Assembly: GCA_963801035.1 (NCBI GenBank)
Contig: CAWDDF010000010.1
Coordinates: forward strand, 212,496-276,495
Source: an uncultured beta proteobacterium
GTDB taxonomy: Bacteria > Pseudomonadota > Gammaproteobacteria > Burkholderiales > Burkholderiaceae_F
Length of the DNA: 64,000 nucleotides
Direction: 5' to 3'
Made by a program: the position numbers and the translations under genes. The first letter of the stretch is position 1, and the number at the start of each line of letters is the position of its first letter. Positions 9,407-60,991 of the stretch are shown here, one piece after another. The notes under the pieces were generated by a model that saw nothing but the letters and a program-made list of their open reading frames with translations, did not search any database and was not told the DNA's origin.

Positions 9407-9418
9407 GATTGCGAATGC

Positions 9419-25781: not shown

Positions 25782-27212
25782 CTAGCGGCGGCCGTTGCTC
25801 CGCTTCGGCGATTGCAATTCGGCCAGCATGCGACGCGTTTGATCGAGAATGCGGCCGTCGATCTTGTCTACATGTAAGTCCCGTAGCAGCGCTTCGAGCT
25901 CCGTACGCGCTGGTGCGGTCTGCCCCGCGTTGGCAAGCAGCACGGCGTGCATATAGCGCCACACGGAAATATCGCCCGAGCGCACGGTCGACCGCGGAAA
26001 GAGCCAGTCGAACGTGGCCAGATGCGCATCGGGCGGCAGGATCGCAAGGAAGGACGAACGATCATCAATCGTGAACAGGTACGGGTAATACGCCGCGCTC
26101 CATAGACGATTGCGAAGCGAATCGGTTATCGCTTCGCCCGAGAGCCGCATATCGTTGGCCACGATGACCGCATAAGGCACGAACTTCGCACGCGACAGGC
26201 TGCCGCCGAATTGCATCGAGCGGACGAACTCGCGCTCGCGGCCACTCGCGACCGCCCTCTCGAAGTGCTGGCGTGCTTCCGAGTCCCGATCGCGAAACCA
26301 CAGATGTTGGCCCCACATCGCGTGGGCATAGACGTTTTCCGGCTCCTCTTTGATTGACCGCTGGAACTGCGCCGCCGGGTCACCGGCGGCAGCGCCTTCG
26401 CGTGCCAGTAGATAGTCAGCCCAGCCTAGGTGCGCGAATAGATCCGCTGCATGCTGCCCGGTCGCGTTAGGCAGCGCTGCCACCAGTACCGGCTGCACCC
26501 GCTTGACGATATCGGCGAATGTCTGCTCGCCGACGCGGATGCGAATCTCACGCAGCCACCGCATGCCGCAGTGCTCGCGCGCGCGATGCAGCGCTGCATC
26601 CGACGGATAGCGCGCGACCAGTTCGTCGAAGCGGTTCCACGCCGCTGCATGGGAGCCGGACATGCACAGCTCTGCGGCTGATGCGGTCTCGCGGGCTGTT
26701 TGCTCGTGCTGCGCTCGCTCGGCCGCGCGCTGTTGCCACACGTAGGCGAACGCGCCAGCACCCATCGCCGCGACGACGGTGAGACCAATCACCGTAAACA
26801 GCAGCGGCCGGGCGCCGCGGTTTCCCATCTGGGTGACCGCGGCCAGCGTTTCGGCGACCAGCTCACCCTGCGGTTGCAGCAGAGTCACGGCCTTCAGATA
26901 GGGCGGGATCGACGCCATCGGGGTCGGTGCGACGACCACCGGCAACACGCGACCGCGTGGGTGGCGCCAGCGTTGCTGCGCTAGATTCAACTCGGCGAGT
27001 GCGTAGCTACCGGCCGCGACCGATTCCGGCGAGACGAGGAAGATGAACACGTCGCACTCGGCGATCGCCTCGCGCAGCTCGGCATCGAAAGGCTGGCCCG
27101 GTTCGAGTTCATGGCGGTCGACAAAGCAGTGATGACCTTCGGCGTCAAGGGCAAGCTGCAACCGCTCGCACAGGTCTCGGTACTTTGACGAATATGAGAT
27201 GAAGATATCCAT
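25782..27212 (-). CDS. Membrane-anchored TIR-domain protein with C-terminal helical-repeat (TPR-like) extracytoplasmic region
   Basis: The N-terminus is MDIFISYSSKYRDLCERLQLALDAEGHHCFVDRHELEPGQPF…CDVFIFLVSPESVAAGSYALAEL (TIR_2 pattern with a candidate catalytic Glu). A single TM helix follows (LLFTVIGLTVVAAMGAGAFAYVW), then about 300 aa of alpha-helical repeat-like sequence. Its start is 26 nt downstream of the stop of the second tube gene. Confidence 0.8.
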   Translation of the reverse strand: MDIFISYSSKYRDLCERLQLALDAEGHHCFVDRHELEPGQPFDAELREAIAECDVFIFLVSPESVAAGSYALAELNLAQQRWRHPRGRVLPVVVAPTPMASIPPYLKAVTLLQPQGELVAETLAAVTQMGNRGARPLLFTVIGLTVVAAMGAGAFAYVWQQRAAERAQHEQTARETASAAELCMSGSHAAAWNRFDELVARYPSDAALHRAREHCGMRWLREIRIRVGEQTFADIVKRVQPVLVAALPNATGQHAADLFAHLGWADYLLAREGAAAGDPAAQFQRSIKEEPENVYAHAMWGQHLWFRDRDSEARQHFERAVASGREREFVRSMQFGGSLSRAKFVPYAVIVANDMRLSGEAITDSLRNRLWSAAYYPYLFTIDDRSSFLAILPPDAHLATFDWLFPRSTVRSGDISVWRYMHAVLLANAGQTAPARTELEALLRDLHVDKIDGRILDQTRRMLAELQSPKRSNGRR

Positions 27213-44411: not shown

Positions 44412-44471
44412 GCACATCGGCGCACGCCCAGGAAGCGTCTGTCGCGACTACCACGGTTGGCTGCCCGAACT

Positions 44472-46473
44472 ATGCAAGCGGTGCGCGCGCGCATAAAGCG
44501 ATGGTTAAACCGCCGTGAAGACACGGGTTGTGAGCAAGGTAAGCCCGATCCCGAACCCGAACCCTTTGTCGACAAGGCGCCGCCCGATCGCTTTTGCGAT
44601 CTCGTGCTGACGGGCGGTGTTACCAGCGGCGTCATTTATCCGTCCGTCGCCGTCGAGTTAGCACGCCATTACCGCTTCAAGAACATCGCCGGCACTTCGG
44701 CGGGCGCCATCGCGGCAGCCTTGACGGCGGCGGCGGAATACGCGCGGCGCAAGAGTCTTCCCGGCAGATTTGAGGCATTGAGCGACGTTCCGAAGCGGCT
44801 AGCCGAGGAAGGTCAACGGCAAGACGCGCTTGCTGTCGCTATTCCAACCGTCTCCGAAAACGAAGCGCCTATTCGGGCTTTTTCTTGGCATGTTGAACAA
44901 GAGCGAGGCCGGATCAGGAATGACATGGTCTGGCATGCTCGCCTGGACACTGGTAAAGCAATACTGGTTTGCGTTGGTTGTGCCGCTGCTGCTGGGATTG
45001 GCGCTCGCGTACGCGGTCACGCCGCGCTGGCTTGCGGTGATGGTCGGCCTCTGCGCCTTCGTTACCGCCGGTGTGATATGCGTTGCCCACCGTGTGTACA
45101 GAGACCTGAATGACGGCATGATTTCCAACGGGTTCGGTCTATGCAAAGGAAGCGAAACCAGCGATCCCGAGAATCCCGCTTTGACCGACTGGCTGCACGA
45201 AAATATTCAGAAGATGGCCGAAAAGGCCGACGCAGAGCCGCTGACTTTTAAAGATCTGTGGCGCGCGGAGCCATTACCAGAGTGGCTGGCTGACTTCTTC
45301 CCGCCCGACAAAGGAAGGGCAATCAATCTGCAGATCATTACCGCGAACCTGACCCATGGCCGTCCCTACCGTCTGCCGTTGGATGACGACTCGACCCGTC
45401 TTTTTTTCAAGGAAAGCGAGTGGCGAACATACTTTCCCGCCGGCGTGATGACGCACCTCTTGAAAGACAACGTCTCGCCGCGGTATGCGCCACGCGACAG
45501 CTCGGAGCCGCCCATTGATGGCGACACCGAAGGTCTGCGTGAGCTTCCAAAAGACAAGCTTCCGATCGTAGTTGCCGCGCGCCTGAGCCTGAGCTTCCCG
45601 TTTCTTTTTTCGGCGGTTCCCCTTTGGGCCATCGACTTCGAGCCAAAGATCGAAGTCGACAAAACGCACCGAAGAAAGCTGCGGCGGTGCTGGTTTTCTG
45701 ACGGCGGCATCTGCTCCAATTTTCCGATCCATCTATTTGATGCCTTCCTGCCCAAATGGCCGACCTTTGGCATTTCTTTGGGCCGACGCAGCCCGTTTCG
45801 CCCCGCCGAGCGCACTTGGTTGCCTGACTTTCATAACGAGGGGAGCGCGGACGCTTGGAACCGCTTCGATGATGAAACATCGCTGGCGACCGGCAAGCCG
45901 CGCAAATCGCTGCAGCGGCTCGTCGGTTTCGCGATGAGCATCATCGCGACAGCCAAGGACTGGAATGACAACACCGAGATGCGAATGCCAGGCTACCGCG
46001 ACCGCGTCGTTCGCGTCGGGTTCTGCGACGGTGAGGGAGAATTGAATGTCAGGCTGGACGATAAGGAGATCCTGCGGCTTGCCAGAGACTATGGCACCGC
46101 GGCGGGTAAAAAGCTTGTGGATAGATTCATCGGTCGGGACCCGGACTGCCCTTCGCAGGCCTGGAGAGATCATCGATGGGTGCGCTTCAATGTATTGCTG
46201 CAATCACTGCGCGAGCGCGTCAATATGATCACGCTGGCAGCGGAAGCAACGCCATACACGCAGCCGCTGAAGGAGCAGATCGCCAAAGCGTTCGCGGCGC
46301 GCCCGCTGTACGGCGTTAGGGATCATGAAGCGCCGTTGAGCGCGGCACAGGCCGACGCACTGGACGGGCTGCTCAATGCAATGATTGAACTTGAGCGGCA
46401 GTTCGAGAAGTATGCCGCGCAGCAGCCGTATCAAGCGGAGCCGAGGCCAAGCTTGAGAAATCGTCCGCCCTGA
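44472..46473 (+). CDS. Patatin-like phospholipase with internal TM hairpin and long C-terminal domain, interrupted by one apparent frameshift near 44805-44830
   Basis: Oxyanion region LVLTGGVTSGV. Nucleophile elbow GTSAG (Ser ~44697). Asp of the dyad in WFSDGGICSNFPIHLFD (~45700). Hydrophobic stretches are WFALVVPLLLGLALAYAV and LAVMVGLCAFVTAGVICVA. The two track ORFs (44457..45113 and 44830..46473) are collinear. Confidence 0.8.
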
Positions 46474-46748: not shown

Positions 46749-49700
46749 TCAGTTCGTCCTGCCATACGTCTGCAGTTTCGCCAGCAGCTCTCCGGCTGCG
46801 CGACCCTCGCCGCCTGTAGCGCGCGCTGCGTACTTCGGCAGCACGAACGACGCCTGGTCGATTACCGAGCTCCACATCGAAGGCGCGCTGACGCGGGCGA
46901 ACAGATCCTCGAATTCCTGCTCGATCTCGGGGCGCTCGGCCGCGAGACGCCGCTCTGCGATCGCGATGTACATGCGCAACTCGATGACGCCAACGAAACT
47001 CCAGAAGTCAGGATCGTCTCGCGCCTTGGCCGCGAGACTGTCCCTTATTTCTGCCAACACCGAGTCGTCGAACTTGTGCGAGCTTCTGTTTCCTGCATCG
47101 ACGATCAGCTCAGCCGCCATCCGATTCAGCGCCGGATAAAACAGTGCTGAGCGATCGGTAGCGCGCGCGAGTGCCTCTGCTCGCGCATACGCTGCCTTCA
47201 TGCCGCTAATGGCGGTGAGCTCTTTGTCCGGCTTTCCGGCCGCTGCTTCAATCAACGCGAGTCGCTTCCACGCGGAGCCGCAAAGATTCTCACGCTCGAT
47301 CGAGGGCTGCAGCCTGGTCAGTCCTTCGAGCAAATCGAGCGCGGCCTTGACTTCCGCTCGCGCGTGCTCCAGTTGCGCCGCACTCGGCTTGGCTTTACCG
47401 GTGTGAGCCTGCTCTACAACTTGCAATGCAAGTCGCGAACGCAGGTTGCCGAGTTGTTCGCCCGCCTTGATCGAAGCGCTTCCATCGTTGGCGGCGAGCG
47501 CTTTGCGGTACCACGCGATTGCCGACGCGAAGTCTTTCGTCTCGGCCCACGCGACGCCGTAGGCCTCGGCCACCGCCCCCATGTCACCCCAGTGTTTTCC
47601 GAATTGCTCTTCGAGGTGGCGGATCTTCTCGCGCTGAGTCTCTTTGTCCGCTTTCTGGTAGCGGCTCTTTATCGCCAGTGATTCGAGCGCAAGCGTTAGC
47701 GCGACGGGGGACGCGACACCGGCAAACTCATCGGCCAGGGGCGGAGAGGGGTGCTGTGCATCGCCGACGCCGCGGCGGAAAACCCAGTCAGGATCGCCGT
47801 AGCACTGGTAGGCGCCCCACGTGTTACCTCCTCGCGCGTGCGCTGCGGTGCGCGCTGCCGCCACGGCGTCGATGAAGCGGCGGCCGCATAGCAATGCGTC
47901 GTAGAACGTCGTCGCAAAGATCATTGCAGGCTCGTCTTCAACCGCCCAACCGGCAGCGACGACGCAACGCACGCCGATCTTGATCAGCTCTTCGGCGACG
48001 TTCGCGGCGAAACGCGACCGGTCGTAAGAGCCCGTAAGCACCTCGCTTGGATTGCGTGCCGCCAGATGGCAGCAGTTGACGAACACCAGCTCCGGCACTG
48101 CACGCATGTTGCGAATCTCGCGCGTGCCGAGAAACGAGTCGCCCGACAGCACGACCCCGCGGGGATTGACGAGCTGCTGCAAGGGGTCATCTTGCTTTTT
48201 CGGAATCGGACCCGCCATCTCCGGCGGCTCGCCGTGGCCAGCGATGTGCACGATGCGCCAGTCGCGCTCCATCAACGTGTTGATGACGGTGAGCGCGTCG
48301 GCACCGAACTGCTGCGGGTCATCGGGGCTGATCAGCGCCTTCACTTGTTGCGCGCCAACCGTCTTCAAACGCTCTGCGACCGCGTTCGCCTCGATGCGCG
48401 CGCCGATCAGGCGCGGGTACCGGCTATCGCATTTGGGTTCGCCGATTACGAGCACGCTCGCATCGGCGTCGGCGTCGACGATCTGTTGGCGAAACTCTGC
48501 CGTCCGCAGCTTGCGCAGAAGCTTCGCGCGAATCGCCCACGGCGGCTGGTCGTGCGACGTGGCGCCTTGGTCGGTGTCGAGCAGCTCCCAGGGAATTCCG
48601 GCGGTGCCGCTGTCGAGCTCCATCACCATTTCGGTGGTCCCGCCGAGGAACGGCTCCATCTCGACCGGCACCAGCAGCTGGAACAGCGTGCGGCCGATAC
48701 GCCGATCGGTGTTCTGATCGTTCGATGCGCTGGCTACCAGCTCGCGCAGCAGCGGCCCCTGTGTGGCCTGTGCACGAACTTCAGTTCGCGCCCGCTTGGT
48801 ATCGAGCGTGTACGCGATCATGGCGTCGTTGTGCAGGCCGAGTTGTGTGACGGCCGAGATGAAGTCGTAGTTGACACCTCGATAGCTCGAGTCGAGCGGC
48901 CTCCGCAGCGCGCCGGTCCCTTGGCGCACGACGTCGGTGACCGCATAGCGGCCCGGTGTTGCCGTGTCCTGCACCTGCAACGAACGCCAGGCCTCGGTCG
49001 CGCGGTCGAGATACAGCTCGACCAGATGCAGGTGGCCGACGCGAGGCCAGCGGCGAACGGGGCGCTTGCTGTCGGCTGCGCGCTCCAGGGTCTCCTTTTC
49101 ATTGGCCTCACGCAGACGATCGTCCGCCTCACGCACGCCTTGTACGACGAGCTGCGCCGACTGGCCCACGGTGATCCCGGTACCGCCGCTGCCGATCATC
49201 GTGGCCGCGAGCTCGAACAGAGCGGGAGCGTCGGCGTTGGTCTCGCCGATACGTTGTGCCCATGCGATCGTCGCTTGCCGCACCGTGTGAACAAGCTCAG
49301 CGGGGGAAAGTTTGCCTTCCTCACCGAGGCCGACCACGACCACCGCTTCAGGTCGCGGCGGCAGCCACGGGTTGTCCGGATCTGCCTGCATATTGATGAA
49401 CACCTGGTGCGTGCCGGTCGGTACCGGGTATAGGCCGACCTTCAGCGCGTCTTCCATCGCGCCGCCTATCAGCTGGTTCATCACGGCTTCGGTGCCCGAC
49501 AAACGCAGAGAGCGATAGTGTCCGATCAATAACGGCTCGCGGATGAAACGAAGGTCGCCATTGACGACCGTGACTTGCAACGCGGCGCCGCGCGCGGCCG
49601 GACCGGCGATGGTCTGCCGATCGTCGAGCGAAAGCAGTTCGCGCGCGTTCTCCGGCGGCGGTCCGGTCACCCGGGTGCGTGACGGCCGGCTGCGTACATG

Positions 49701-52377
49701 CGCGACCGGTGCGGTTGCGCCGCGAACCTCCGCCTCAGCAAACGGCTGCAGCAAACCCGTAGTGCCGGTGCTCAGCAGTTCCACGTAAGCGGGAAACGCC
49801 GCCTTCTCGTCCGGCAAGCCGCCATGCTCGCAGTCGAGTTGCCACGTGCGGACACCCGGCAGGCGCGCGCTCGTAATCGTCACACGGCCGTCGCCGTGAT
49901 TCGGCGCGTCGAGATACACAAGCCCTTCGTCGCCGATCTCGTAGCCATCGGGTGTGAAGCGCGCTTGACCCACGACGAGCTTCACCTTGTCGCTGAACGA
50001 GGCCAGGTCGGCTGCTATCTGCGCATCCAGGCGCTGGCGCAGGGCCAGCGCGCGGTCAAGCACGGACTGTGGCGGCACGCCCCAGGTGCACGACTCTATC
50101 TGCAGTCCTTCGTGGTGCCACCAACTGTTCTCGCGCACGCGTTTCAGATCCTCGTCGGCGAGCGCCTGCCACGTCGCGTGTTGGTCGAGCGCAAGCTTGG
50201 TGTCTAGCAGCCCGGCCTGCAGTTGAATGAATCCCGGCATCCGAGCCATCAGCGCGCGCGCGGTGCGATCCTGAAACGGTGCGCCGAAAGTCACCAGCAG
50301 ATTGCCGAACGTGTCGTCGCCGGATAGCACCTGCATCGGAGCCCACGAACCGCCGTTCGGCGTGCCTAGCATCAACAAGCGCGCATCGGGGTGCGCCATC
50401 ATCCGCTGCCAAACCTTCGGCTTCTCGAGCTGCATCGTGCGCGCGAGCACTCCGCCCATCGAGTGAGCGAGCAGGCGGACCGGCTTACCGCTCGCCTTGC
50501 GTGCGTCGAGCGCGGCAGTGACCGCGTCTGCCAGACGCGCCGCTTCGTCTTCTATCGGACGCCGCCAATCGAACGCGAATTCGATGACCTCGTGCGTCTT
50601 TGCCAGATACTCGCCGAGGTCGTCATAGCTCATCCCGACTGGCCCGTCGGGCTCGACACCGTCGGGCTTGCCGGTGTAGTCGAGCTTCTTGAGGCCGTTG
50701 ATCAGGCGCCAGCCGAGCCAGATGCGTTTGCCGTTGACCTTTAGGTTGCTGCCCAAGATGCCGGGCAGCACGAACACCGCTGGCTTGTCGCTCGCGGGCT
50801 TGCCGTCGTCGGCTCCGCGTATGCGGCCACGCACGCCGGTGGCCGATTCGCCGGACCACGACAGCGGCCCAATGACGCGAAAGCCGGTGGGCATGTCTTG
50901 CGTGAGCGCGTTGACAATGGCTTCGGCCGTGCGCTCGTTGCTGAAATAGTTGAAGTGCGAAACCTTGCCGCCCTGGTCGAGCACGAACGTCGCCCCGGCG
51001 GCACGTGGAGCACCGCCGTACATCGAACGCGTCTGAACCACCAGGTCGTTATCGGTCCAGTAAAACGAATCGGCCAGCAGCGTCTTCAGCCACGACATCA
51101 CCGAGTCGCCCTCGATGTCGCCGGCCACCACGCGCAATTCGCCCGGGATCGGCTCGTCTACCGCATGCAGCCAGCGCACCAGCGGACTGTCGGGAATCTG
51201 CGCCGCGAGGCCGGGAATCTTGTCGGGGTCTGCGCGTCGCTGTGCCACCTCTCCCAGGAAGTCGACGAGCACGGGCGCGACCGGAATGCCGGCCAGTTCC
51301 AGGGTCCACTTGAACACCGACAAGTACGCGTCGAGTCGCTTGGACGCGAGCAGCGTGCCGCGCGCCGGGCATGCCACGCGCACGATGCGCTCGACCTTGA
51401 TACCGCGTGTTTTCACCTCGTCGACGAGCGTCTTCAGCGCATCGCGCTGCGCTTTGTATTCGGTGCCCTTGAACAATGCCGTGTCGTCGGGGCTCAGCTT
51501 CGGGTTTGCACAAACGCGCGCCAGTACTTCCGCCACCAACCCGCCGCGCGAATGAGTGACCAAGTGCAGGCGCGCTCCCTTGGGCAGCGCCTGCACGAGC
51601 GTCAACGCATTGCTGATCGGGCCAACGCCCAGCGTCGGATGCTCGAGTCCATAAACTCGGTCGGCATACTTTGCGAACAGCGTGCGCACGTGCTGTGGGT
51701 ACTGCGACCACAGTTTGGAAAATGAGCCGCTGGTCGTCGTGAACGTGCCATGCACGAACACCAGCAGCGGCCCGCCGTCGGCCGCGGCCGGCGCCTGCGC
51801 AAGCGGCTTGCCGGTGCCCTTCAGCGGCGGCAGCGATTCGCGCGGCAATGCATACAGGCCAGCGGTTACCTGATTGTCGACACGTTGCACCGCCTTCGTG
51901 ACTACGAAGTCGGCTGCATCGCCTTTGCTGACGCCGGTGACCACCTCGATCGCCGACAGCAACACGTCGCCCAGGAAGCCGCGGGTCGCACCACGGACTG
52001 GCGCTTCTTTCTCGAGTCCGCGCCAACGCAGTTGCGCGGGAACTCGTACCTCGTTGGGTCCCGGTTGATCAACACCCTGCTCCGCGAGTTCGTTTGATTT
52101 GGCCTTGCTGACCCAGCATCAGGTCGCGTGCGTTTTCGGGATGCAGGGTCAGTGCCGGTCCGCCTGCGATGTGCAGCACGACAACGTCCTCGCCAGGCAT
52201 CGCTGCAACGCGTACCTCGGCACCGACGCCGCGCTGCGCGCCAACGCGTACGGATTGCTTCAGAACTCCGCTGGTCAGCCCCGCCGGCAGCGGTGCGGCC
52301 GCCGCGCCGCGCGTTGCGGCGGGCTGCTCCTGTCCGGGAACGAGAAAGACAATCGGCTGTGCAGCGGTCGTTGCCAT
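46749..52377 (-). CDS. Giant multidomain protein: N-terminal leader domain / two lipase-like alpha/beta-hydrolase modules / LAP-N (macro-fold)-like module / CHAT protease / C-terminal helical repeats; one apparent frameshift between 52072 and 52118
   Basis: Track ORF 46749..51965 (1738 aa) has several motifs. Hydrolase 1 is LLVFVHGTFT…LVTHSRGG (Ser ~51551). Hydrolase 2, LCAT/PGAP1-like, is FVLPGILGS…FDWRRP…LLAHSMGG (Ser ~50462). The LAP-N-like pattern is VTVVNGDL…LLIGHY…AVVVVGLGEEGKLSPAELVHTVRQA. The CHAT dyad is RIVHIAGHG (~48236) and LVFVNCCHLA (48069-48074). Its frame stays open upstream to 52118 and overlaps the end of ORF 52069..52467. The latter's internal ATG at 52377 (MATTAAQPIVFLVPG) has an aagga RBS and sits 19 nt after the amidase stop. 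Confidence 0.75.
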
Positions 52378-52396: not shown

Positions 52397-53104
52397 TTAG
52401 CGGCGTACGAGCGTCGAGCGCGTGCGCGCTCGAGTTTTCTTCTTCGGCGCTTTGTGCATGACGCCAACTTTCACCGCGCCGCGCTGAACCGCCATCGCGG
52501 GCGCGTTGCGATCGAGCGCGCGGCCGGCGATTGCCGCCAGTGGAAACGCGGGCCCAGGATCCTGCTTGCGTCCGCGCGCGATGTCTTCGTGGCCGAGCAC
52601 GTCCTGCAGTCCGTAGTAGTCGACTAGCAGCTTGGCCAACTCGTGCGCACGCTCTATCTGCACTTCGGTGTAGACGTGCCACGGCCGCGTGCCGCCGCCG
52701 TGTTTGTGCTCTGCGAGCATCACATCGCCTGCACCGTATTCCTTGCCGAACCACGCGATGAACTTGTCGCCGACCCTATTCAACCAACCGGCATTGTCCA
52801 TCTCAATGCCGATCGAAGCGCGGTTCAGCCCCACGAGTCCATTCCACTGGCTGACTCCGGCATGCCAGGTGACGATGTTGAACGGCGCGAGTTGCACGAT
52901 GCGCCCGTCGCGCGACACCACCAGATGTGCAGACGCGTTTCCCTGCGGCTTGCGAGTGCACAGCGACTCGACCGAGCTGTCGGCCGACCGGCCCGCCGTG
53001 TAGTGGAACACCAGAAAGCGTGCTTTCAATTCGCCGCCGCAGTTCGGCGTGGCGCGGAAGCTCACGCCGTCTCCGATCAGCCGATGATTCTCGATGCTCA
53101 GCAT
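52397..53104 (-). CDS. N-acetylmuramoyl-L-alanine amidase (Amidase_2; AmpD/PGRP-type)
   Basis: Track ORF 52397..53296. The preferred start is ATG 53104 (MLSIENHRLIG), 7 nt after the caspase stop. Motifs are FLVFHYTAG…ASAHLVVSRDGRIVQL…TWHAGVS…SIGIEMDN…GHEDIA…KQDPGPAFP. Confidence 0.85.
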   Translation of the reverse strand: MLSIENHRLIGDGVSFRATPNCGGELKARFLVFHYTAGRSADSSVESLCTRKPQGNASAHLVVSRDGRIVQLAPFNIVTWHAGVSQWNGLVGLNRASIGIEMDNAGWLNRVGDKFIAWFGKEYGAGDVMLAEHKHGGGTRPWHVYTEVQIERAHELAKLLVDYYGLQDVLGHEDIARGRKQDPGPAFPLAAIAGRALDRNAPAMAVQRGAVKVGVMHKAPKKKTRARTRSTLVRR

Positions 53105-53111
53105 GGACGGC

Positions 53112-54030
53112 TTACACCGTAAATGGACGCTGCGCGACGAAGCGCGCGACGTCGCCGAGCAGATACAGATTCGGCGTCTGTCCTGGCGGCATGCCGGCCC
53201 GGATAGCGGCGTGAAAACTTGCGTAGTTTCCTTGGTAGGCGCCGCGGTTCCACACTTGCAACAGCTGCCCCGTAAAGGCGCCGTTATAGTCGCCATCCAT
53301 CGACGTCTGGTTGTCCTGGCAGCCGGAGATAAGAATCACTGCGGCTTTGAACTTGCGCACGATCGCACTGACGCGACCGCTGCTTACGCTGAGGTTCGAC
53401 AGCACCGCATCCGGATCAGCGATACTGGCTTTGCCGGCATTCTTGGCGATGTCGGCCTGCAGCTTGTCGTAGAACTTTTGATGCTGCTCGTATGCCCGGC
53501 GCCCGACCTCGACCGGCATCATCTTTGAGCGACCAATGACTAACGTGCCATCTGCATTCGGCCGACGAGCGCGCGTGACGGTGCCGGAGTGGCAGCTGTC
53601 GGATAACACGAGGATGCGCACGCCCGTCGGCGAAGCGGCTCAGCTCGTAGTACAGCTCGTCGTCGATCAGCTGACCGTCGTACAGACACCAAGTCTCGTC
53701 CTGCTTGTCGGATTCGTCGCCGGTGATGTCGGGCACCTGGCCGCCATGACCCGAGAAGGTGAGGAAGAAAAAGTCTCCTGCACGCAGCGACTTGGCGGCA
53801 TCACGAATGCCGGCCAGTATGTTCGCGCGCGTGCCCTTCTTCGTCAGCAACACGCTCGTCTTCATGCCCTGCGCTCGGGCAAGCGCAGCCAAGTCGTGCG
53901 CGTCGAATTCACACGCCGCGAGAGGTCCGCTCCAGCCGCCGTAGGCCGAAGGGCTCACCGTGTTCAGACCAATATTCAGCGACAGCGCCCGCGGCTTGGT
54001 CGCGAGTGCCTTGCGTCGTTTGCCTGCCAT
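53112..54030 (-). CDS. Caspase-fold (peptidase C14) protease, interrupted by one apparent frameshift near 53620-53632
   Basis: ATG 54030 ([23 protein letters not shown]) follows a gggaggag RBS. The catalytic His is in [11 protein letters not shown] (~53746-53748). After the shift at a gacggg run the frame reads [13 protein letters not shown], with the catalytic Cys at 53592-53594. Confidence 0.8.
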
Positions 54031-54204
54031 GCGCTCCTCCCTTACTTTCTTGGGCTCGATCATCGCCACAATCGATCGCCTCGGCAACCGCTTACATCGA
54101 TGAGTGCGTCGTGAAAAATGGACAAGATGCTTGTTGACTACTGCGTTAACGTTCGCGAAACGTGACCATGACGCTCTTCGAATCCCGGTAGCCACGTCAT
54201 CGCC

Positions 54205-55989
54205 ATGTTCGGTCCCCGCCTGTTCGTCAGCTACCGCCGCGCCGACTCGGAGGCCACCGCTGGCCGCCTGTTCGAGGCGCTGAGAGCGCGGTTCGGAGAT
54301 CGCGTGTTCTTCGATACATCCAGTATTCCGTACGGAGAAGACTTCCGACGCGTGATACGAACGCGCATAGCCGCGAGCGACGTGGTGCTTGTCGTCATCG
54401 GAAAACAATGGCTCACTGCCGCCGACGAGCGCGGGCTCAGGCTGCAGCAGCCGGACGATCCGGTTCGCTTCGAGATCGAAACCGCACTCGCGCGCGACTC
54501 GGTGCGAGTAGTGCCGGTGAGAATTGATCACGCTGAGCCGCCGCCCGAGTCGGCCCTGCCGGCGTCGATTGGCGCGCTGGCGGCGCTGAACATGGCGCAG
54601 CTGCGCAACGAAACGTTCGACGTCGATTTCAACGCGCTGGTCGAACAACTGCACGGTCGGATGCCCGGCGACGTCGTCCGCGAGCTCGACTGGAGCAGTC
54701 GCGTCAAGGCGACAGCAGCGGCGTTTCCAATCGCGGCGATAGCGATTGCACTGCTGGCGCTGCTGGTTGCATGGTCAGGCGCACTCGACCTGTTGCACAT
54801 CGACACGCATGTGCAACGGCTCTTGCTCGCTGCCGGCGCCCGCAATGCCGGTGAGCCGGTACTGCTGGTGGGCATCGACGCAGCAAGCGAGCGTGAGCGT
54901 GGCAGACCCTTTGGGCCCGCTGAGCATGTGGCCGCCTGGCGCCGCGACCACGCGCGCCTGATCGATCGTGCTGCGCTCGCTGGCGCTAAGGCCGTGGTGT
55001 TCGATATTTTTTTCGAACGCACGACCGATGCCGATGCCGAGCTCGCCGCTGCTGCGCGTCGCGCCGCCAAAGGAGCAACACCGACGCGTGTGGTCTTCGG
55101 CGTGCGCCGCCTCGCAGGCGACGCGCCCGAATTGCCGCCGATCCTCCGCGACGCTGGGCAATGGGGGTCGCTGTGCCTGATCGACCGCGGTGGTGGTGCT
55201 TTGTGGTCGACGCCGCTTGCAATCGCGCAGCGCAGCAGCACGCGCGCCGGCGACTCGGTTGCAGCGGTACATCCAGCGCTGTCTTTGGCGGCTCTGGTGG
55301 GCGAACCGCTACGCGCAGCCGATCTGTCCCGGCGTGAGCTGCGATTCGACGGGCCGCTGCGTCTAACGCCGGTTCGCTTCAGTACGGTCGAGCCGACGCG
55401 GCTCGACCATCCTTCGTGCCCCATCGCGCGTGACGGCGACGACCAGTTGACGCTGCTGCTGCGCGTTGCCCCGGCTGGGCACTGGCGCGACGCGGCGCGC
55501 CAAGTGTCGTACGCCGACGCGCTGGATTCGGCGCGCGTCGGCGACGATCGCTTCAAAGGCCGTGTCGTCCTCGTTGGAGCGATGGCGCTCGAGCGTCCCG
55601 AAGCGAACGCCGACATCCACATCGTTCGCGAAGGCTTTGTGCCTCGCCAAGTGTTCGGCGTCGAACTGCAGGCCGACGCCATCGCGACACTCGCCAGTGG
55701 CCGCGTGCCGCAACTGCTTACCGTCGGGGGTCATTTCGCTACGACCCTGCTGGCCTGCGCTCTCGGGGCGGTAGCTGCGCTCGGGTTGTATCGCCAACCG
55801 CGATGGTGGCGCCGTGGTGCGCTGCTTGCGCTGATGCTCGCCTGGATGCTCGTTGCGTGGTGGCTAGCGACGCGCGACATCGTGATCAACGCAGCGCATG
55901 ATGTGATCGCGATGCTGCTGTCGTATCTTGCGCTGCGCGCGACGCAATGGTTCGCGCGCACCTTCCAACGCGTGCGGAGACCGACATGA
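54205..55989 (+). CDS. TIR-domain protein fused to a CHASE2 extracytoplasmic sensor domain (multi-pass membrane protein)
   Basis: The TIR domain is [47 protein letters not shown]…[12 protein letters not shown]…[14 protein letters not shown] helix follows. The CHASE2 pattern is [12 protein letters not shown]…[29 protein letters not shown] … [18 protein letters not shown]. There are C-terminal TM helices. Confidence 0.85.
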
Positions 55990-56651
55990 GTACCTCAGCC
56001 AGTTGTCTGTGTCGCTGGCCTACATTCCTGGCGCTGGTGTTGACGCTGGCCGGCAGCGCCAACGCGCAAACCGCGTTGCCGCCGGCGCAGTTGTGGCAGA
56101 TCGCACGCGAAGTGCCCGGCGCCGACCCGCGCTGGCAGCGCATCGACGCCGACAAGACCGCGGTGCGGGTATGGCGCGGCGGTCGCGAGATTGCGGTTCA
56201 GCGACTAATGACCTTGCTGCCGGGCGACGAGTTAGAGACGGGTCAGAACGTAGCCGTGGTACTTCGCTTTCGCGATGCCGGCGAGACGTTGATACATAAA
56301 GGCACGCGTGTGCGAATCGGCTCGCTCGAAGTCGTTTTCGGGCGCGTGTTCGCGCAGTTGCGGAATCGGTTCACGGTGTCGAGCCAGACTGTCGTTGCTG
56401 GCGTCGAGGGGACGCGTTTTCTGTTCGAGGTCGGTCGCGATCGTGCGGTGCGGATCGCGGTGGCCGACGGTGCAGTCGTGTGCCGTTCGCCGAAGGACGC
56501 ATGGGCGCCGGTGCGGCTGCGTGGCAACGAGTCGCTGTTGGCGCGCTACCCGGGCCGTGGGCCGCCAGCAGTGGGGAAGGCAGACGCGCGCGAGATGCGC
56601 GCGTACGAGGAACTGTCGCTGCAAATTGGTCGCGCGACCGCTGCAAGATAG
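55986..56651 (+). CDS. Secreted FecR-domain protein
   Basis: ATG 55986 overlaps the TIR-CHASE2 stop (ATGA). The signal peptide is …WPTFLALVLTLAGSANAQ. The FecR-type beta-rich core is GDELETGQNVAVVLRF…TVSSQTVVAGVEGTRFLFEV. Confidence 0.8.
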   Translation: MSTSASCLCRWPTFLALVLTLAGSANAQTALPPAQLWQIAREVPGADPRWQRIDADKTAVRVWRGGREIAVQRLMTLLPGDELETGQNVAVVLRFRDAGETLIHKGTRVRIGSLEVVFGRVFAQLRNRFTVSSQTVVAGVEGTRFLFEVGRDRAVRIAVADGAVVCRSPKDAWAPVRLRGNESLLARYPGRGPPAVGKADAREMRAYEELSLQIGRATAAR

Positions 56652-56663
56652 TAGAAGCGGCCA

Positions 56664-57257
56664 GTGAAAAAGATGGCAACGCCGCGGCTCATATTTTTGT
56701 TTAGCGGTCACATGATCGACAAGCTGGGCCGTAGGCATCCGCGGTTTCCGCCCGAGTGCGAGCCGAGCGTCGCCGCTGCAATCGACGCCAAGCTAACCGA
56801 GCTGGGTGCTGATGCTAATGATTTGGGAATTACTCAGGGTGCGTGCGGAGGCGATCTGCTGTTCGCCGAAGCCATGTTGAAGCGCGGTGCAGCGCTGGAG
56901 CTGCATTTGCCGCTTACTGAAGAAGTGTTCATTAACCGGTCGGTCGATTTCGAGAAGGCGTCGCTCAATAGTCCCGACCGCTGGCGCGATCGGTTTCTCG
57001 CTGTCCGGCGCCATCCGTCCGTTGCTGTGACTGTGATGAGCAACGACGGCCAAGCGTCAGACGATGTATTCGAACGCTGCAATCTGTGGATGGTCGAGCG
57101 CGCACTTTCCTTCGGCGCCGACAAAGTGCGCTTTATCTGCGTGTGGAACGGCGAAGGCGGCGACGGGCCGGGTGGCACAGAACACATGCGTAAAGCGGTG
57201 GAGCAAAGCGGCGGCGCGCAGTACTGGATCGATACTCGCAAACTGTGTCAGCAATAG
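56664..57257 (+). CDS. Hypothetical protein, possibly SLOG-fold (LOG/DprA/YpsA-like Rossmannoid)
   Basis: 197 aa. LIFLFSGHMID…GITQGACGGDLLFAEAMLKRGAALELHLP resembles the (S/Q)G-x-x-G-x-D…A glycine-rich loop of SLOG families. A later motif is VWNGEGGDGPGGTEHM. This is weak, motif-level evidence only. The start could be GTG 56664 or ATG 56673. Confidence 0.35.
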   Translation: MKKMATPRLIFLFSGHMIDKLGRRHPRFPPECEPSVAAAIDAKLTELGADANDLGITQGACGGDLLFAEAMLKRGAALELHLPLTEEVFINRSVDFEKASLNSPDRWRDRFLAVRRHPSVAVTVMSNDGQASDDVFERCNLWMVERALSFGADKVRFICVWNGEGGDGPGGTEHMRKAVEQSGGAQYWIDTRKLCQQ

Positions 57258-57311
57258 CGCGGCCAAACATCACCAACAAACAATTCTTCCCCGTCATTGC
57301 AAGGAAATTCG

Positions 57312-58187
57312 ATGCCCGACAATCTGCAGCCCATCACGCAGGTCGACTCCGCTGCGTTCGAAAGACCGGAGTTCCAGCAATCATTGAACGACTATTCCCG
57401 AGTATTCCTCGCGGAAGGCGATTCGTGGTTCAGCTACGGTTCGACGAAGTTCCGCAATACATTTACTTCGATGGAGTTGCCTTACCCCGCCTGTGTGCTC
57501 AATATTTCCGAACCCGGCGACACGCTGCGTCGAATGCACGAGACAACTCGCAATCGGCAGTTCTACTTTTATCTGCGAAACAAGAGCGGGCGACGCTGGA
57601 ACGCAATTTTTCTTTCTGGTGGTGGCAATGACCTGATGGACGCTTTGTGGAACAAGGAGGCGCAGCGCTCTGAAATATTGGTTAGGCCGAACGCGCCGGG
57701 AAGCATCGACCAATCGAACCTGCGCTCAGTGATTAACGAGGACGCTCTCGATGCACTGCTTAACTACATCAAGGTCAACGTCGCTCAGATCGTCGCGCAG
57801 GGACGCGACGGTCCAGGCAGCGACAGCCAGGGTGTTCCGCTGCTGATGCACACCTACGCGCTGGCGCAACCTCGTAACGCGCCGGTGCGGCACGTGGGAG
57901 GAGGGCCCTGGCTCTTTCCGGCGTGCGTATGGCTGGGGATCGATTCGGCGCTGTGGTTGGACCTTAGTCGGTTGCTGCTGGAAGAGCTCGCTGCGTGCAT
58001 CAGGTCAATCGACCTGCCAAATTTTCATGTTGTCGATACGTTGAAACTGACTACGACACTGATACCAGCCGCTGCTGGGACTACGGGAGATTCAAACGAC
58101 TGGGACAATGAAATTCATCCCAATCGCGGCGGCTACAAAAAACTCGCTGCCACCTGGACGGAGGAGATCGCCAAGATACTTCCCTGA
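57312..58187 (+). CDS. SGNH/GDSL-type hydrolase (esterase/lipase fold)
   Basis: ATG 57312 follows an aagga RBS. Block I is FLAEGDSWFSYG. Block III is IFLSGGGNDLMD. Block V-like is WDNEIHPN. Confidence 0.7.
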   Translation: MPDNLQPITQVDSAAFERPEFQQSLNDYSRVFLAEGDSWFSYGSTKFRNTFTSMELPYPACVLNISEPGDTLRRMHETTRNRQFYFYLRNKSGRRWNAIFLSGGGNDLMDALWNKEAQRSEILVRPNAPGSIDQSNLRSVINEDALDALLNYIKVNVAQIVAQGRDGPGSDSQGVPLLMHTYALAQPRNAPVRHVGGGPWLFPACVWLGIDSALWLDLSRLLLEELAACIRSIDLPNFHVVDTLKLTTTLIPAAAGTTGDSNDWDNEIHPNRGGYKKLAATWTEEIAKILP

Positions 58188-58451
58188 TGCAGGAACGCAG
58201 TAGCGCTTGACACGATTCTTGACTACGTCCTCAAGGTGCGTCATCGAACCCCACGCGCCCTCGCTGTCGAGCACTGCGCGATGGATTTGAGTTCGTATAA
58301 CACGCCAGAATCTGGCTCCTTGAGTCTCCTCGCGCAAGTGTCAGGTCGATGCGCCTGGAGCGCGAATAAGCAGTAGTCGCTCAGCAGATTCGCTTTTACA
58401 CTCGGCAGCGAAGGCCGGGGCTGCGGCGGGCCCGGGCAAGCGGAGGTGCCG

Positions 58452-59429
58452 ATGGCCGACTTGTTCGTCAGCTATTCGCGCGAAGACAAGGCGCGGGCAG
58501 CCGAAGTCGTGCGTCTGCTTGAAGACTATGGGTGGGACGTTTTCTGGGATCAGGAAACGCGCGCGGGTGAGCTGTGGCCGGAGGTGCTCGAAGAAGAGCT
58601 CGGTAGGGCGCGCTGCCTGGTGGCGCTGTGGACCACTACCTCGATTGCGAGCCGCTGGGTTCGCATAGAGGCATACGAGGCGCTACAAAGCGAAAAGCTG
58701 GTACCGGTGCTGCTAGATAAAGTGCGGCCACCGCTCGAATTCCGGCAGACACAGACTTTCGATCTTATCGGCTGGAACGGTGACCGCGACGATGCTCGAC
58801 TAGCGCATTTTTTGGCAGATCTGACGTCACTTGTGAAGGCGCCCAGTTCAGACCGTGCGTCACCTCGAGCTCAGATCGTCGTTCCAACCACACTGCGTCG
58901 TCCGATGCCGCCCGCGACGCCAACGAATGAGGCGCATGCAGGCAGTGGCAAGGCCGATGCGCAATCTGCAGCGATTGGTTCCCAACCTCAGGAGACTCGC
59001 CGCTCTGCTTCTTCGTCGCGAGCTTCCGGGTCGACAGCTCCTTCCTCGCGCGGTCTCGTTATCGGTTTTGGCGTCACTGCGGCGGTCGCTGCTGCTGTCT
59101 GGTTGATCAGCACGATGGACTTTTCCGCCGAATCGAGTCCGCCGATCGAGGCAAAACAGTCGTTGCAGACAACACCGGCTGCACCGTCGACCAGCGTTGC
59201 CGCGCCGGTGCCTCCGACTGTCCAGCCAGCACCTGCCACGCCCCCGCCTGCTCAGACGGCTGCCATTGCCCCAGGTACATCCCCTCCGCAGGGTTCCAAA
59301 CCTGCTGCTAAGCAGCCGTCAAAGTTGCGGTCGTCTCGTTGCCTGGCGATCGAGGAAAAGTTTCAGCAAACCGGACAGATAACGGTGACCGAGCGAGACC
59401 TTCTTCGCAGCAAGGAGTGCCAATCGTGA
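58452..59429 (+). CDS. TIR-domain protein with TM helix and Pro/Ala-rich extracytoplasmic tail
   Basis: A GGAGG RBS precedes ATG 58452. The TIR domain is MADLFVSYSREDKARAAEVVRLLEDYGWDVFWDQETRAGELW…CLVALWTTTSIASRWVRIEAYEAL. The TM helix is LVIGFGVTAAVAAAVWLIS. A P/A/T-rich linker and a short Cys-containing C-terminus follow. Confidence 0.85.
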   Translation: MADLFVSYSREDKARAAEVVRLLEDYGWDVFWDQETRAGELWPEVLEEELGRARCLVALWTTTSIASRWVRIEAYEALQSEKLVPVLLDKVRPPLEFRQTQTFDLIGWNGDRDDARLAHFLADLTSLVKAPSSDRASPRAQIVVPTTLRRPMPPATPTNEAHAGSGKADAQSAAIGSQPQETRRSASSSRASGSTAPSSRGLVIGFGVTAAVAAAVWLISTMDFSAESSPPIEAKQSLQTTPAAPSTSVAAPVPPTVQPAPATPPPAQTAAIAPGTSPPQGSKPAAKQPSKLRSSRCLAIEEKFQQTGQITVTERDLLRSKECQS

Positions 59430-59437
59430 AAGCGTCG

Positions 59438-60742
59438 ATGATTGCCATTAGATCGCTCACGCAAGCGAGCCGATCGTGTCGCATAACTGTGCTCATCGCA
59501 TTCTGCGCAACTTCTATAGCGGGCTGCGCGGTGCCGCCGACTGCAGCTCCTCCGCCAGCGGCGGCGACTGCGCCGACGCCCGCACTAGCGCCACCGCCGG
59601 CCGCGCCCGCGCCGGTCGCAGTACCTAGCGCGCCGGCGCCCCCTGCAGTGCTGCCACTCGAAGATGCGCTGCTGGCAGCGGCCAACAACCTGTTTTCGAC
59701 GGCTTCAACCGCGCTCGCTGCGCCGCCCGCGCAAAGGGTCGTCGTGATCGATCCGCTGGTTGATGGTGTCTCGCATATACAAACTGTCACCACGCAGTCG
59801 CTTGAAACAAAAATCCAAGGACTGGTGAAAGCGAAGTACCCGGGCTTTGACGCGCAGCCGTTTTCGCGCGCGTCGGTAAGGCAGGCGCCGATCGTGCTCG
59901 TCGGAACTTTCACGGCGATCGATCTGAAGAACCAGACCGGCGGCGCGCGCGACGCTTTTCGCATCTGCTTGGCATTGGCCGATTTGAAGTCTGGGCTGAT
60001 CGTTGCAAAAGGGGTTGCCCGCGCAAAGATCGAAGGCGTGAACCTGACGCCGCTCCCGCATCTTCAGGATGCGCCGGCGTGGACTAAGGATCCTTCTGTC
60101 GACGCCTATGTCCGAACCTGCCAGGCAACGAAGCCAGGCGACCGCATTGACCCGGCATACCTGGACGGAATTCTCGCGGCCTCCTTGATCGCTGAAGCGA
60201 GCGACCTCTTCGACGCCGGCCGCTACCAGGAGGCAATCGACGTCTACCGCAGCGCACTTTCAACTCCCAAGGGCGATCAACTGCGCGTGCACAACGGCAT
60301 TTACAGCGCGAGCTGGAAGCTCGGCCGTCGCGCCGATGCCGAGCGCGCGTTCAGTGAAGCCGTAAGGGTAGGACTTGCGAACAATCGGCTGGGGGTGAAG
60401 TTTCTGTTCCGCCCCGGCACGACTGAGTTCGTGACCGATCCGCGACTGAACGCGCCGTATCCAATGTGGATGAGCCAGATTGCACAGCGCGCCACCGCAC
60501 AGGCTGCTTGCCTTCAAGTAGTCGGGCACACCAGTCCAACCGGACCTGAACCATTAAACGAGCGGCTGTCGGTGCTGCGGGCCGAGAATGTCAAGATTCG
60601 GCTCGAGCGCGAATCGCCAAAACTCAAAGGACGCATCATCGCAAGCGGCGCCGGCTCGCGAGAAAAACTCGTGGGCACCGGCACCGATGATGTGCGCGAT
60701 GCACTTGACCGGCGTGTCGAGTTCAAAGTCGTGCCCTGCTGA
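59438..60742 (+). CDS. Lipoprotein with Pro/Ala-rich linker, TPR-like segment and OmpA-like peptidoglycan-binding C-terminal domain
   Basis: The lipobox is in MIAIRSLTQASRSCRITVLIAFCATSIAGC. The OmpA_C pattern is LQVVGHTSPTGPEPLNERLSVLRAENV…ALDRRVEFKVV. It starts 9 nt after the TIR gene stop; an alternative GTG start overlaps that stop. Confidence 0.75.
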   Translation: MIAIRSLTQASRSCRITVLIAFCATSIAGCAVPPTAAPPPAAATAPTPALAPPPAAPAPVAVPSAPAPPAVLPLEDALLAAANNLFSTASTALAAPPAQRVVVIDPLVDGVSHIQTVTTQSLETKIQGLVKAKYPGFDAQPFSRASVRQAPIVLVGTFTAIDLKNQTGGARDAFRICLALADLKSGLIVAKGVARAKIEGVNLTPLPHLQDAPAWTKDPSVDAYVRTCQATKPGDRIDPAYLDGILAASLIAEASDLFDAGRYQEAIDVYRSALSTPKGDQLRVHNGIYSASWKLGRRADAERAFSEAVRVGLANNRLGVKFLFRPGTTEFVTDPRLNAPYPMWMSQIAQRATAQAACLQVVGHTSPTGPEPLNERLSVLRAENVKIRLERESPKLKGRIIASGAGSREKLVGTGTDDVRDALDRRVEFKVVPC

Positions 60743-60915
60743 GTTGCTTGCGTCAGTGCCTCATACCTCGGCGCGTCGTACGGTAACGTCGAAGAAGGAA
60801 TTGCCGAGGTAGTGGGCGTTGATCTTCCCGCCCGAACCGCGATCTGGCGATCGACTTCCCGCTTCACTGCAAGGTCTGCGAACCATGCGGGCAGCATTAC
60901 AAGGGACTGATTTAT

Positions 60916-60991
<76 letters not shown>

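Follow-up and report, generated by a model that had tools for sequence, protein, structure and literature searches.

A two-gene TIR-CHASE2 and FecR module predicted to couple envelope sensing to NAD+ cleavage in an uncultured beta proteobacterium

Introduction

What does a TIR domain do at the inner end of a periplasmic sensor, and which of the adjacent genes belong with it? The question is raised by a 64,000-nucleotide (nt) stretch of DNA from an uncultured soil beta proteobacterium (GenBank assembly GCA_963801035.1, contig CAWDDF010000010.1, positions 212,496 to 276,495; here called the window), in which four + strand open reading frames, with coordinates that were confirmed, occupy positions 54205-58187. 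The first encodes a predicted membrane receptor, TIR-CHASE2, and the other three encode a FecR-domain protein, a SLOG-fold protein and an SGNH-type hydrolase. The analysis presented here points to the first two genes as the conserved unit, a module that probably reads an envelope cue and responds by cleaving NAD+.

To our knowledge, the characterised bacterial TIR systems (Thoeris, CBASS TIR-SAVED, SPARTA, Avs and retron-TIR) sense intracellular cues. With a TIR enzyme wired to a periplasmic sensor, bacterial immunity or programmed death based on NAD+ would gain a means of responding to cues from outside the cell. Furthermore, CHASE2/FecR activation could be followed easily through loss of NAD+ or a stop in growth, which could help to find the signals of CHASE2 domains; a report on a Burkholderia operon stated that none was known (PMC5192318).

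Results

A receptor gene and an overlapping FecR gene as the conserved unit

The receptor, its parts and its partner are located as follows (aa, amino acids; TM, transmembrane helix; pLDDT, AlphaFold confidence score).

54205-55989, + strand: TIR-CHASE2 membrane receptor, the core gene (594 aa; Pfam TIR_2 and CHASE2; pLDDT 86.5)
54205-54654, + strand: TIR domain, predicted cytoplasmic, SARM1-like, residues 1-150 (codon of the candidate catalytic Glu90 at 54472-54474)
54715-54771, + strand: TM1, residues 171-189 (hydropathy 2.65; AlphaFold helix 163-191)
54751-55767, + strand: CHASE2 domain, predicted periplasmic, Pfam residues 183-521 (with the invariant Cys324 and Cys405)
55735-55935, + strand: TM2 to TM4, residues 511-577, followed by a 17-residue cytoplasmic tail rich in lysine and arginine (K/R)
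55986-56651, + strand: FecR-domain partner, predicted to be exported (221 aa; start inside the ATGA overlap with the TIR-CHASE2 stop)

Within the 594-aa protein, Pfam CHASE2 (PF05226) matches residues 183-521 (E = 1.2e-22; 81.2 bits, cutoff 26.3) and TIR_2 matches residues 7-145 (E = 1.4e-14; 55 bits, cutoff 28). Hydropathy places TM helices at residues 171-189, 511-529, 538-556 and 559-577, all matched by helices of an AlphaFold model built on 48 relatives, and K/R-rich stretches are found ahead of TM1, in the TM2-TM3 loop and in the C-terminal tail. Because hydropathy, K/R distribution and modelled helices agree, the TIR domain is predicted to face the cytoplasm and CHASE2 the periplasm, with one TM before the CHASE2 domain and three after it. 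The chain stops 17 residues past TM4 and has no C-terminal output domain. Across 48 aligned sequences, D225, R246, H249, D267, D470, E487, C324 and C405 of the CHASE2 domain are invariant. The acidic and histidine residues of this set could form a metal- or ligand-binding site, and the cysteines, which are nearly invariant also in representative alignments of CHAT-CHASE2 and TIR-CHASE2 proteins, could form a disulfide.

The FecR-domain gene begins within the last codons of the receptor gene, through a 4-nt ATGA start/stop overlap (GACATGAGTA), and the N terminus of its product resembles a type I signal peptide, as judged by eye. A first-pass annotation made from the window's sequence had described a CHASE2 receptor whose sole enzymatic module is an N-terminal TIR, translationally coupled to an exported FecR protein. 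That description is borne out: the region between the TM helices is CHASE2 by profile, nothing but the short tail follows TM4, the overlap is present and export is predicted. The partner consists of a signal peptide and a FecR domain only, which is not the FecIRA-type anti-sigma layout, and neither a sigma factor nor a TonB receptor was found in the scanned part of the window (~22-63 kb).

To place the pair in a wider context, related loci (numbered with the prefix L) were gathered from genomes, metagenomes and exact-protein look-ups and scanned by tblastn and by hidden Markov models (HMMs) built from our own alignments. The genome scan, with a single-sequence query, retrieved close relatives only; the metagenome scan, with an alignment as query, was far more productive. 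About 74 full-length relatives (clusters at 90% identity) contain both TIR_2 and CHASE2; the few with named sources come from Burkholderiaceae or Piscinibacter. A FecR-family gene lies immediately 3' of TIR-CHASE2 in 28/28 informative loci, that is, those with enough sequence past the receptor gene, at 30-100% identity; the three loci that lack a FecR gene end within CHASE2. The 4-nt overlap (ATGA, once GTGA) is retained in 21 of the 26 loci measured, and among the five exceptions are two assemblies full of frameshifts in which ATGA can nevertheless be seen. The reverse look-up gave the same picture, with all three distant FecR-family members (40-41% identity) following a TIR_2+CHASE2 gene with the same overlap. 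These three pairs are flanked by housekeeping genes, e.g., for F420 biosynthesis, transporters and a chemoreceptor, and because the FecR-side look-ups found the pair in such surroundings, it can be said to stand alone.

Most of the FecR partners are lipoproteins (LAGC lipobox) and bear one to four C-terminal Cys-rich repeats of the form GWCC..G.V....C.G.F......A...C (e.g., in L008, L097, L098 and P0362-P0412), across which no Pfam domain is reported. A precomputed PF04773 (Pfam FecR) match is present in many orthologues of the partner, and the one in L098 is annotated as FecR. In IMG/VR viral contigs and PLSDB plasmids, TIR-CHASE2 was not found and the matches were TIR-only; there is no sign in these collections that the module is phage- or plasmid-borne. 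Within the window, tblastn detected no paralogue of the CHASE2, FecR or SLOG protein, and neither the CHASE2 region nor the FecR and SLOG profiles gave a meaningful match among PDB sequences. From gene order and sequence, the conserved unit is judged to be the two-gene pair at 54205-56651, and the strict, translationally coupled partnership makes the pair a concrete candidate for a two-protein sensor.

The TIR domain as a candidate NADase

The folds closest to the modelled TIR domain in Foldseek searches are human SARM1 TIR structures (TM-score 0.84-0.86; root mean square deviation 2.2-2.8 Å; 22-25% identity), with AbTir, plant TIRs and BtpA among the lower-ranked matches. When the whole-protein model served as the query, all 50 listed matches fell on the TIR domain. 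A phmmer alignment sets DDPVRF-E90-IETAL opposite KDWVHK-E-IVTAL of SARM1 (KDWVHKEIVTAL), and the SARM1 glutamate in this position is the catalytic one, E642 as counted from the G601 landmark. E90 is invariant among 48 aligned family members, down to 28% identity; F7, S9, Y10, R11, R12, D14, W69, D85 and V87 are further invariant TIR residues of the same alignment. The protein shows two hallmarks of an NADase-type TIR, the fold and the catalytic Glu in the alpha-C helix, and the natural reading of alignment and model is that the domain is an active NAD+-cleaving enzyme.

The likeness to SARM1 extends to the mode of activation adopted here as a model, namely, TIR-TIR assembly. Unlike the TIR-CHASE2 receptor, SARM1 forms soluble ARM-SAM-TIR octamers that respond to the NMN/NAD+ ratio, without membrane or extracytoplasmic sensing. 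Animal Toll-like receptors are comparable by analogy only: they too combine an outside sensor, membrane span(s) and an inside TIR, but in TIR-CHASE2 the TIR is N-terminal, the ectodomain is unrelated, there are four TMs and the TIR is predicted to be enzymatic rather than an adaptor, so that homology is limited to the TIR fold.

A CHASE2 clade with different N-terminal effectors

The CHASE2 part without TIR (residues 160-594) was searched against 1.84 billion representative proteins, yielding 476 matches at an E value of ≤1e-3 and 37 at ≤1e-30. Pfam scans of the 105 full-length proteins among the best 150 of these matches revealed two length classes, with CHASE2 C-terminal in both. The class of ~550-640 aa combines TIR_2 with CHASE2 (61/65), and the class of ~740-910 aa, most members of which are 800-840 aa long, combines CHAT with CHASE2 (35/40). 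Single cases among the 105 are a protein with an N-terminal kinase domain (Pkinase+CHASE2, P0282) and a CHAT+CHASE2+PASTA protein. A cyclase, GGDEF or HisKA domain was found in none of these 105 nearest full-length relatives. The TIR-CHASE2 architecture spans at least 68 clusters at 50% identity, including 7 further annotated representatives, so that the fusion, for which the first-pass annotation had proposed a survey, recurs far beyond what chance would give and is not a one-off. These sequence relationships suggest a distinct CHASE2 clade that would drive N-terminal destructive effectors.

Fusions of caspases to CHASE2 have been described previously, namely, the Trichodesmium metacaspase-CHASE2 (PMC3501461) and EACC2-caspase-CHASE2 (PMC8195603) proteins. 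The caspase/CHAT-CHASE2 receptors share with TIR-CHASE2 an N-terminal cytoplasmic death-type effector, a TM, CHASE2, three TMs and no C-terminal output, and by sequence they are the CHASE2 proteins closest to it, with a protease as effector where it has a TIR. TIR-CHASE2 is described nowhere in the literature retrieved for CHASE2 together with TIR, Thoeris, NADase or CHAT. The parts of the protein and its partner, TIR NADase on one side and CHASE2/FecR sensor on the other, are known; their combination, which parallels caspase-CHASE2 and is widespread in metagenomes, is new as far as the searched literature goes.

The sensor side has precedents of its own. CHASE2 proteins encoded beside a FecR-domain gene have been reported for histidine kinases and cyclases (PMC5192318, PMC9239204), and in L006 a canonical CHASE2-cyclase gene is followed by a FecR-TPR gene. 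Because the pairing is known for these enzymes and recurs in L006, the CHASE2+FecR sensor pair looks general, and TIR looks like a swapped-in output. The canonical sensors likewise combine CHASE2 with an exported FecR-domain protein from the adjacent gene. In contrast to TIR-CHASE2, their cyclase or kinase output is C-terminal and regulatory; the 4-nt gene overlap and the separate CHASE2 clade further distinguish the TIR-CHASE2 pair.

Proposed mechanism and the evidence against it

TIR-TIR assembly builds a composite NAD+-cleaving site in SARM1, AbTir and other TIR enzymes. By analogy with these enzymes, and given the domain assignments and models above, the two-gene module probably works as follows. 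FecR and CHASE2 would jointly sense an extracytoplasmic or envelope cue. Residues 154-159 between TIR and TM1 form a low-confidence linker in the AlphaFold model (pLDDT <50), and the predicted disorder of this linker makes rigid coupling a less likely route for the signal than the clustering of receptors upon ligand binding. The clustered TIR domains would then assemble the composite site, and NAD+ would be cleaved. The outcome could be NAD+ depletion, which would stop the growth of the stimulated cell or kill it, and, in addition or instead, a signal derived from ADP-ribose. A role in cell suicide or immunity is favored over ordinary second-messenger signaling because the nearest CHASE2 relatives carry a caspase-like CHAT protease instead of TIR.

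Several observations weigh against this interpretation. The NADase activity, the ligand and the contact between FecR and CHASE2 are all inferred. The PF04773 score of the 221-aa partner barely passes (24.5 bits, cutoff 24), and in the partner the lipobox Cys is replaced by Ser and the Cys-rich repeats that most of its relatives possess are lacking. One protein, P0221 (804 aa), carries TIR_2, CHASE2 and FecR on a single chain and would favor the pairing, but it is given little weight because the two genes overlap and a frameshift could have produced the fusion artificially. For CHASE2-cyclase signaling in Sinorhizobium, an associated FecR-domain protein proved dispensable for perceiving the signal (PMC5498481). 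At the system level, PADLOC recognized no defense system in the window: its ThsB, SAVED-TIR and PDC-S66 profiles match TIR regions only and none of its profiles matches the FecR, SLOG, SGNH or CHAT proteins, and NCBIfam gave far sub-threshold matches only. Finally, the distant TIR-CHASE2+FecR pairs lie outside recognizable defense islands; for this reason an anti-phage function is not particularly suggested, and the housekeeping flanks together with the missing system-level match keep the suicide or immunity role uncertain.

Among the alternatives, the one that fares best holds that the TIR is an ADP-ribosyl cyclase that answers an environmental cue without killing the cell, its nucleotide product being read by receptors encoded elsewhere. 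CHASE2 is elsewhere coupled to messenger-making enzymes, the CHASE2+FecR pair serves cyclases (L006; PMC9239204), TIR domains are known to make isomers of cyclic ADP-ribose (cADPR) (10.1101/2021.01.06.425286; 10.1101/2024.10.24.620036), and the pair is often found among housekeeping genes. However, the sister clade carries CHAT proteases and no messenger synthases, the closest structure belongs to SARM1, an executioner that consumes NAD+, and no conserved candidate receptor gene lies beside the pair. This alternative is considered unlikely, and a suicide or immunity role is preferred to it.

An extension of the preferred interpretation is offered more tentatively and is, on balance, doubtful. 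TIR-CHASE2+FecR and its CHAT-CHASE2 sisters might be bacterial "death receptors," in which the CHASE2/FecR-lipoprotein ectodomain would read phage adsorption or injection, cell-wall damage or a competitor molecule and would unleash a cytoplasmic SARM1-like NADase or caspase-like protease, with proteins of the SLOG family reading or buffering the nucleotide product in some lineages. If this were true, TIR-CHASE2 would be the first bacterial TIR immune enzyme gated from outside the cell.

A separable SLOG-SGNH cassette downstream

The third and fourth genes of the row follow FecR closely.

56664-57257, + strand: SLOG-fold protein, head of a separate cassette (197 aa; fold match to YpsA, DprA and ShosA)
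57312-58187, + strand: SGNH/GDSL-type hydrolase, predicted cytoplasmic, variably present (291 aa; without a hydrophobic N terminus)

The FecR gene is separated from the SLOG gene by 12 nt (to GTG 56664) or 21 nt (to ATG 56673), and the SLOG gene from the SGNH gene by 54 nt (to ATG 57312, which is preceded by an AAGGA ribosome-binding site). The 197-aa protein has no match in Pfam or NCBIfam (even at an E value of 1), in PADLOC or among PDB sequences. Its family, so far undescribed, comprises more than 2,600 homologue clusters, none with a Pfam domain. Its AlphaFold model (pLDDT 88.6) matches YpsA (E = 9e-6, TM-score 0.60), DprA and ShosA in the PDB and DprA-like, YpsA-related SLOG and DUF2493 proteins in a viral structure library. 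These structure matches, together with the invariant Gly-rich motifs GACGGD and GDGPGGT of the family, identify a SLOG fold. The 291-aa protein scores just below threshold with the HMMs Lipase_GDSL (23.4 bits, cutoff 23.6) and Lipase_GDSL_2 (25.3 bits, cutoff 32.9), and the catalytic blocks GDSW, GGGND and D..H (DNEIHP) can be read by eye in its translation, which shows no signal peptide.

The first-pass annotation had placed a SLOG-like protein and an SGNH hydrolase third and fourth in an operon of four genes. The fold of the third, the motifs of the fourth and the gaps of 12 and 54 nt agree with that account, but conservation of the whole row is not supported, as genes 3 and 4 are not co-conserved elsewhere, an outcome that the annotation had itself named as grounds for abandoning the idea. 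SLOG and SGNH are missing from all TIR-CHASE2 loci at ≤56% identity, save for L021, where two SLOG-like genes are found at other places in the locus and one of the two is a fusion with TPR-S. The SLOG+SGNH pair is present in the window and in L002, L010, L011 and L017. Among the close relatives, L002 has the pair upstream of a TIR-TM/OmpA cassette that is inverted, and L010 has it on the opposite strand. No SGNH gene is present in L001, L003 and L016, the last of which is 97% identical to the window through the SLOG gene, where synteny breaks at the stop codon and a convergent nSTAND1 gene follows. The G+C content is 0.66-0.67 in TIR-CHASE2 and FecR versus 0.56-0.59 in SLOG and SGNH. On a broader scale, it is 0.58-0.59 over positions 56500-59000 (SLOG, SGNH and the TIR-TM gene described below) versus 0.65-0.68 in the TIR-CHASE2 region just upstream.

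The gene arrangements resolve the row into three cassettes that appear separable: TIR-CHASE2+FecR, SLOG+SGNH and a further pair, TIR-TM plus an OmpA-like lipoprotein. The tight spacing allows co-transcription in this strain. A promoter and terminator scan of positions 53900-60950 found no promoter-like sites and terminator-like sites no commoner than in shuffled sequence, and is uninformative on transcripts.

The SLOG family also recurs beside TIR genes of other kinds. In four of six loci fetched via SLOG-family proteins alone, a TIR gene lies at most two genes from the SLOG gene (L011, L013, L099 and L100, but not L012 or L101), and a SLOG gene lies directly upstream of TIR-TM (L001, L003), TIR-TPR (L099, L100) and TIR-SIR2 (L037) genes. 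A TPR-S sensor region is fused to a SLOG-family domain in L021 (1982-3988, - strand) and L089 (1552-3543, + strand). A link between SLOG and TIR is plausible from this small sample, and within the window the pattern suggests that the SLOG gene belongs at least equally with the TIR-TM gene at 58446-59429 as with TIR-CHASE2. The family, now delimited although it has no Pfam model, recurs beside TIR, CHAT and TPR-S genes, and its members are candidates for the handling of nucleotide signals.

These data bear on a second alternative, a Thoeris-like four-gene relay in which the TIR makes a cADPR-type signal, the SLOG protein binds it and the SGNH hydrolase acts as the effector. The SLOG fold is confirmed, and SLOG is the sensor of cADPR isomers in ThsA (PMC11204291); the frequent proximity of TIR genes in the SLOG-fetched loci, the position of SLOG directly upstream of TIR genes of three architectures and the tight spacing in the window, with no terminator between the genes, are all compatible with a relay. 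However, most TIR-CHASE2 loci have neither SLOG nor SGNH. The cassette has changed its orientation or place in L010 and L002, three loci (L001, L003 and L016) have lost SGNH, and G+C falls from 0.66 to 0.59 at the FecR/SLOG junction. Moreover, the SLOG fold is closer to YpsA and DprA than to ThsA, and the partner that recurs with the SLOG gene is a TIR gene downstream of it, which in the window would be TIR-TM at 58446 and not TIR-CHASE2. The relay is thus decidedly improbable, and the TIR-CHASE2+FecR pair is taken to act without it.

Thoeris itself (ThsB TIR with ThsA SIR2/Macro-SLOG, and type IV) resembles the locus in that the neighborhood has a caspase-like gene in addition to a TIR and a SLOG-fold protein, and the TIR region matches the ThsB profiles and the ThcB4 profile. 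Conversely, the ThcB4 match reaches 51.6 bits against a cutoff of 220, PADLOC finds no ThsA, the SLOG protein has no fused effector, the TIR here is part of a membrane receptor, and the accessory genes are not conserved with TIR-CHASE2. Membership in Thoeris types I to III was rejected on the grounds of scores far below the family cutoff and the lack of a ThsA-type effector.

Two further observations concern the loci with SLOG-family genes. L099 and L100 share, at positions 7001-9340 (+ strand), a conserved row of three genes, of which the first belongs to the SLOG family, the second encodes a TIR_2-TPR protein of 334-342 aa and the third encodes a 216-aa protein without a Pfam domain; the row is possibly a self-contained TIR system. 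In L021, a CHAT plus metallo-beta-lactamase protein adjoins TIR-CHASE2.

Neighboring genes in the window and in related loci

The row is embedded in a larger cluster, of which the following features were identified.

58446-59429, + strand: second TIR protein (TIR-TM), with an N-terminal TIR_2, one TM (203-221) and a Pro/Ala-rich extracytoplasmic tail
59438-60742, + strand: OmpA-like TPR lipoprotein (lipobox IAGC), starting 8 nt past the TIR-TM stop
53112-54039, - strand: caspase-like protein (Peptidase_C14), transcribed divergently to TIR-CHASE2, with the frame interrupted near 53622 by a 1-nt insertion
52397-53296, - strand: Amidase_2/AmpD-like muramoyl-alanine amidase, with homology from Met65 on
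46749-51965, - strand: 1,738-aa DUF7379/lipase+CHAT+TPR-S protein (orthologues in L001, L004, L010, L057 and L100)
60916-60991, - strand: tRNA-Phe, where the cluster ends on the right

In this lineage the core module has several island neighbors that are not part of it, namely, the two cassettes SLOG+SGNH and TIR-TM+OmpA-like and the nearby genes for the caspase, the amidase and the CHAT protein. The likely start of TIR-TM is ATG 58452, downstream of a GGAGG site; the gene comes straight after the SLOG gene in L001 and L003 and moves as a unit with the OmpA-like lipoprotein gene in L002. This cassette parallels TIR-CHASE2+FecR in having a TIR inside and an envelope partner outside.

The caspase-like gene, the closest PDB match of which is GSU0716 (3bij, E = 2.7e-82), is intact in L001 and L004. 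In the window, a 1-nt insertion relative to L001 splits it into two frames (GCCGACGGGCGTG versus GCTGCGGGCGTG), reflecting either a pseudogene or an assembly error. It is accompanied by the 1,738-aa giant in L001, L004, L010, L057 and L100, and by the AmpD-like amidase as well in L001, L004 and L010. The giant-caspase block is found as far as 32% identity (L057), each time near TIR and SLOG-family genes, and L057 repeats the set of the window: caspase, DUF7379-CHAT-TPR-S giant, TIR receptor and SLOG gene. In the position of TIR-CHASE2, L057 encodes a 688-aa TIR_2 protein with five C-terminal PASTA repeats (7992-10058, + strand), a second type of TIR with a cell-wall-facing sensor.

The proximity of the two genes raises a third alternative, a pairing of the kind known from type IV Thoeris, in which the TIR product would activate the divergent caspase-like protease at 53112-54039. 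Signaling from TIR to caspase is established in that system (10.1101/2024.10.24.620036), and caspase and TIR-CHASE2 genes are divergent neighbors in the window, L001, L003, L004, L014 and L015, with the SLOG/SGNH cassette sitting between them in L010 and L011. Against this, the caspase gene of the window is frameshifted, caspase is absent from the distant TIR-CHASE2 loci, and where present it travels with the CHAT giant, also beside TIR-PASTA (L057) and TIR-TPR (L100). It is, furthermore, transcribed divergently, whereas type IV Thoeris is defined by an operon that unites the caspase with a short TIR. Such a pairing is accordingly very unlikely, and assignment to type IV Thoeris was not adopted for a caspase gene that is divergent, outside the operon and frameshifted. 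Finally, the idea that the TIR of TIR-CHASE2 is a non-enzymatic adaptor recruiting other TIR proteins, which draws on the scaffold role of TIR domains in animal Toll-like receptor signaling and on the three TIR genes of the window (the others being at 58446-59429 and 25782-27212), is scarcely credible, since the catalytic Glu and its surrounding motif are invariant down to 28% identity and the closest structures are enzymatic TIRs.

No direct repeat of the tRNA-Phe 3' end and no att-like repeat was detected, and no integrase was found in the examined parts of the window. Farther upstream, a patatin-like phospholipase gene (44457-46473, + strand) is split, at about 44830-45113, over two overlapping frames of 218 aa and 547 aa that match positions 1-47 and 89-190 of the Pfam profile, making it the second frameshifted conflict-type gene within 10 kb. 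Another gene of the type found in conflict systems (37029-41204, + strand) has a product of 1,391 aa that combines an adenylate/guanylate cyclase domain with a STAND-type NTPase (AAA_16) and TPRs. The third TIR_2 protein of the window (25782-27212, - strand; 476 aa; N-terminal TIR, E = 2e-20) is encoded ~27 kb upstream of TIR-CHASE2.

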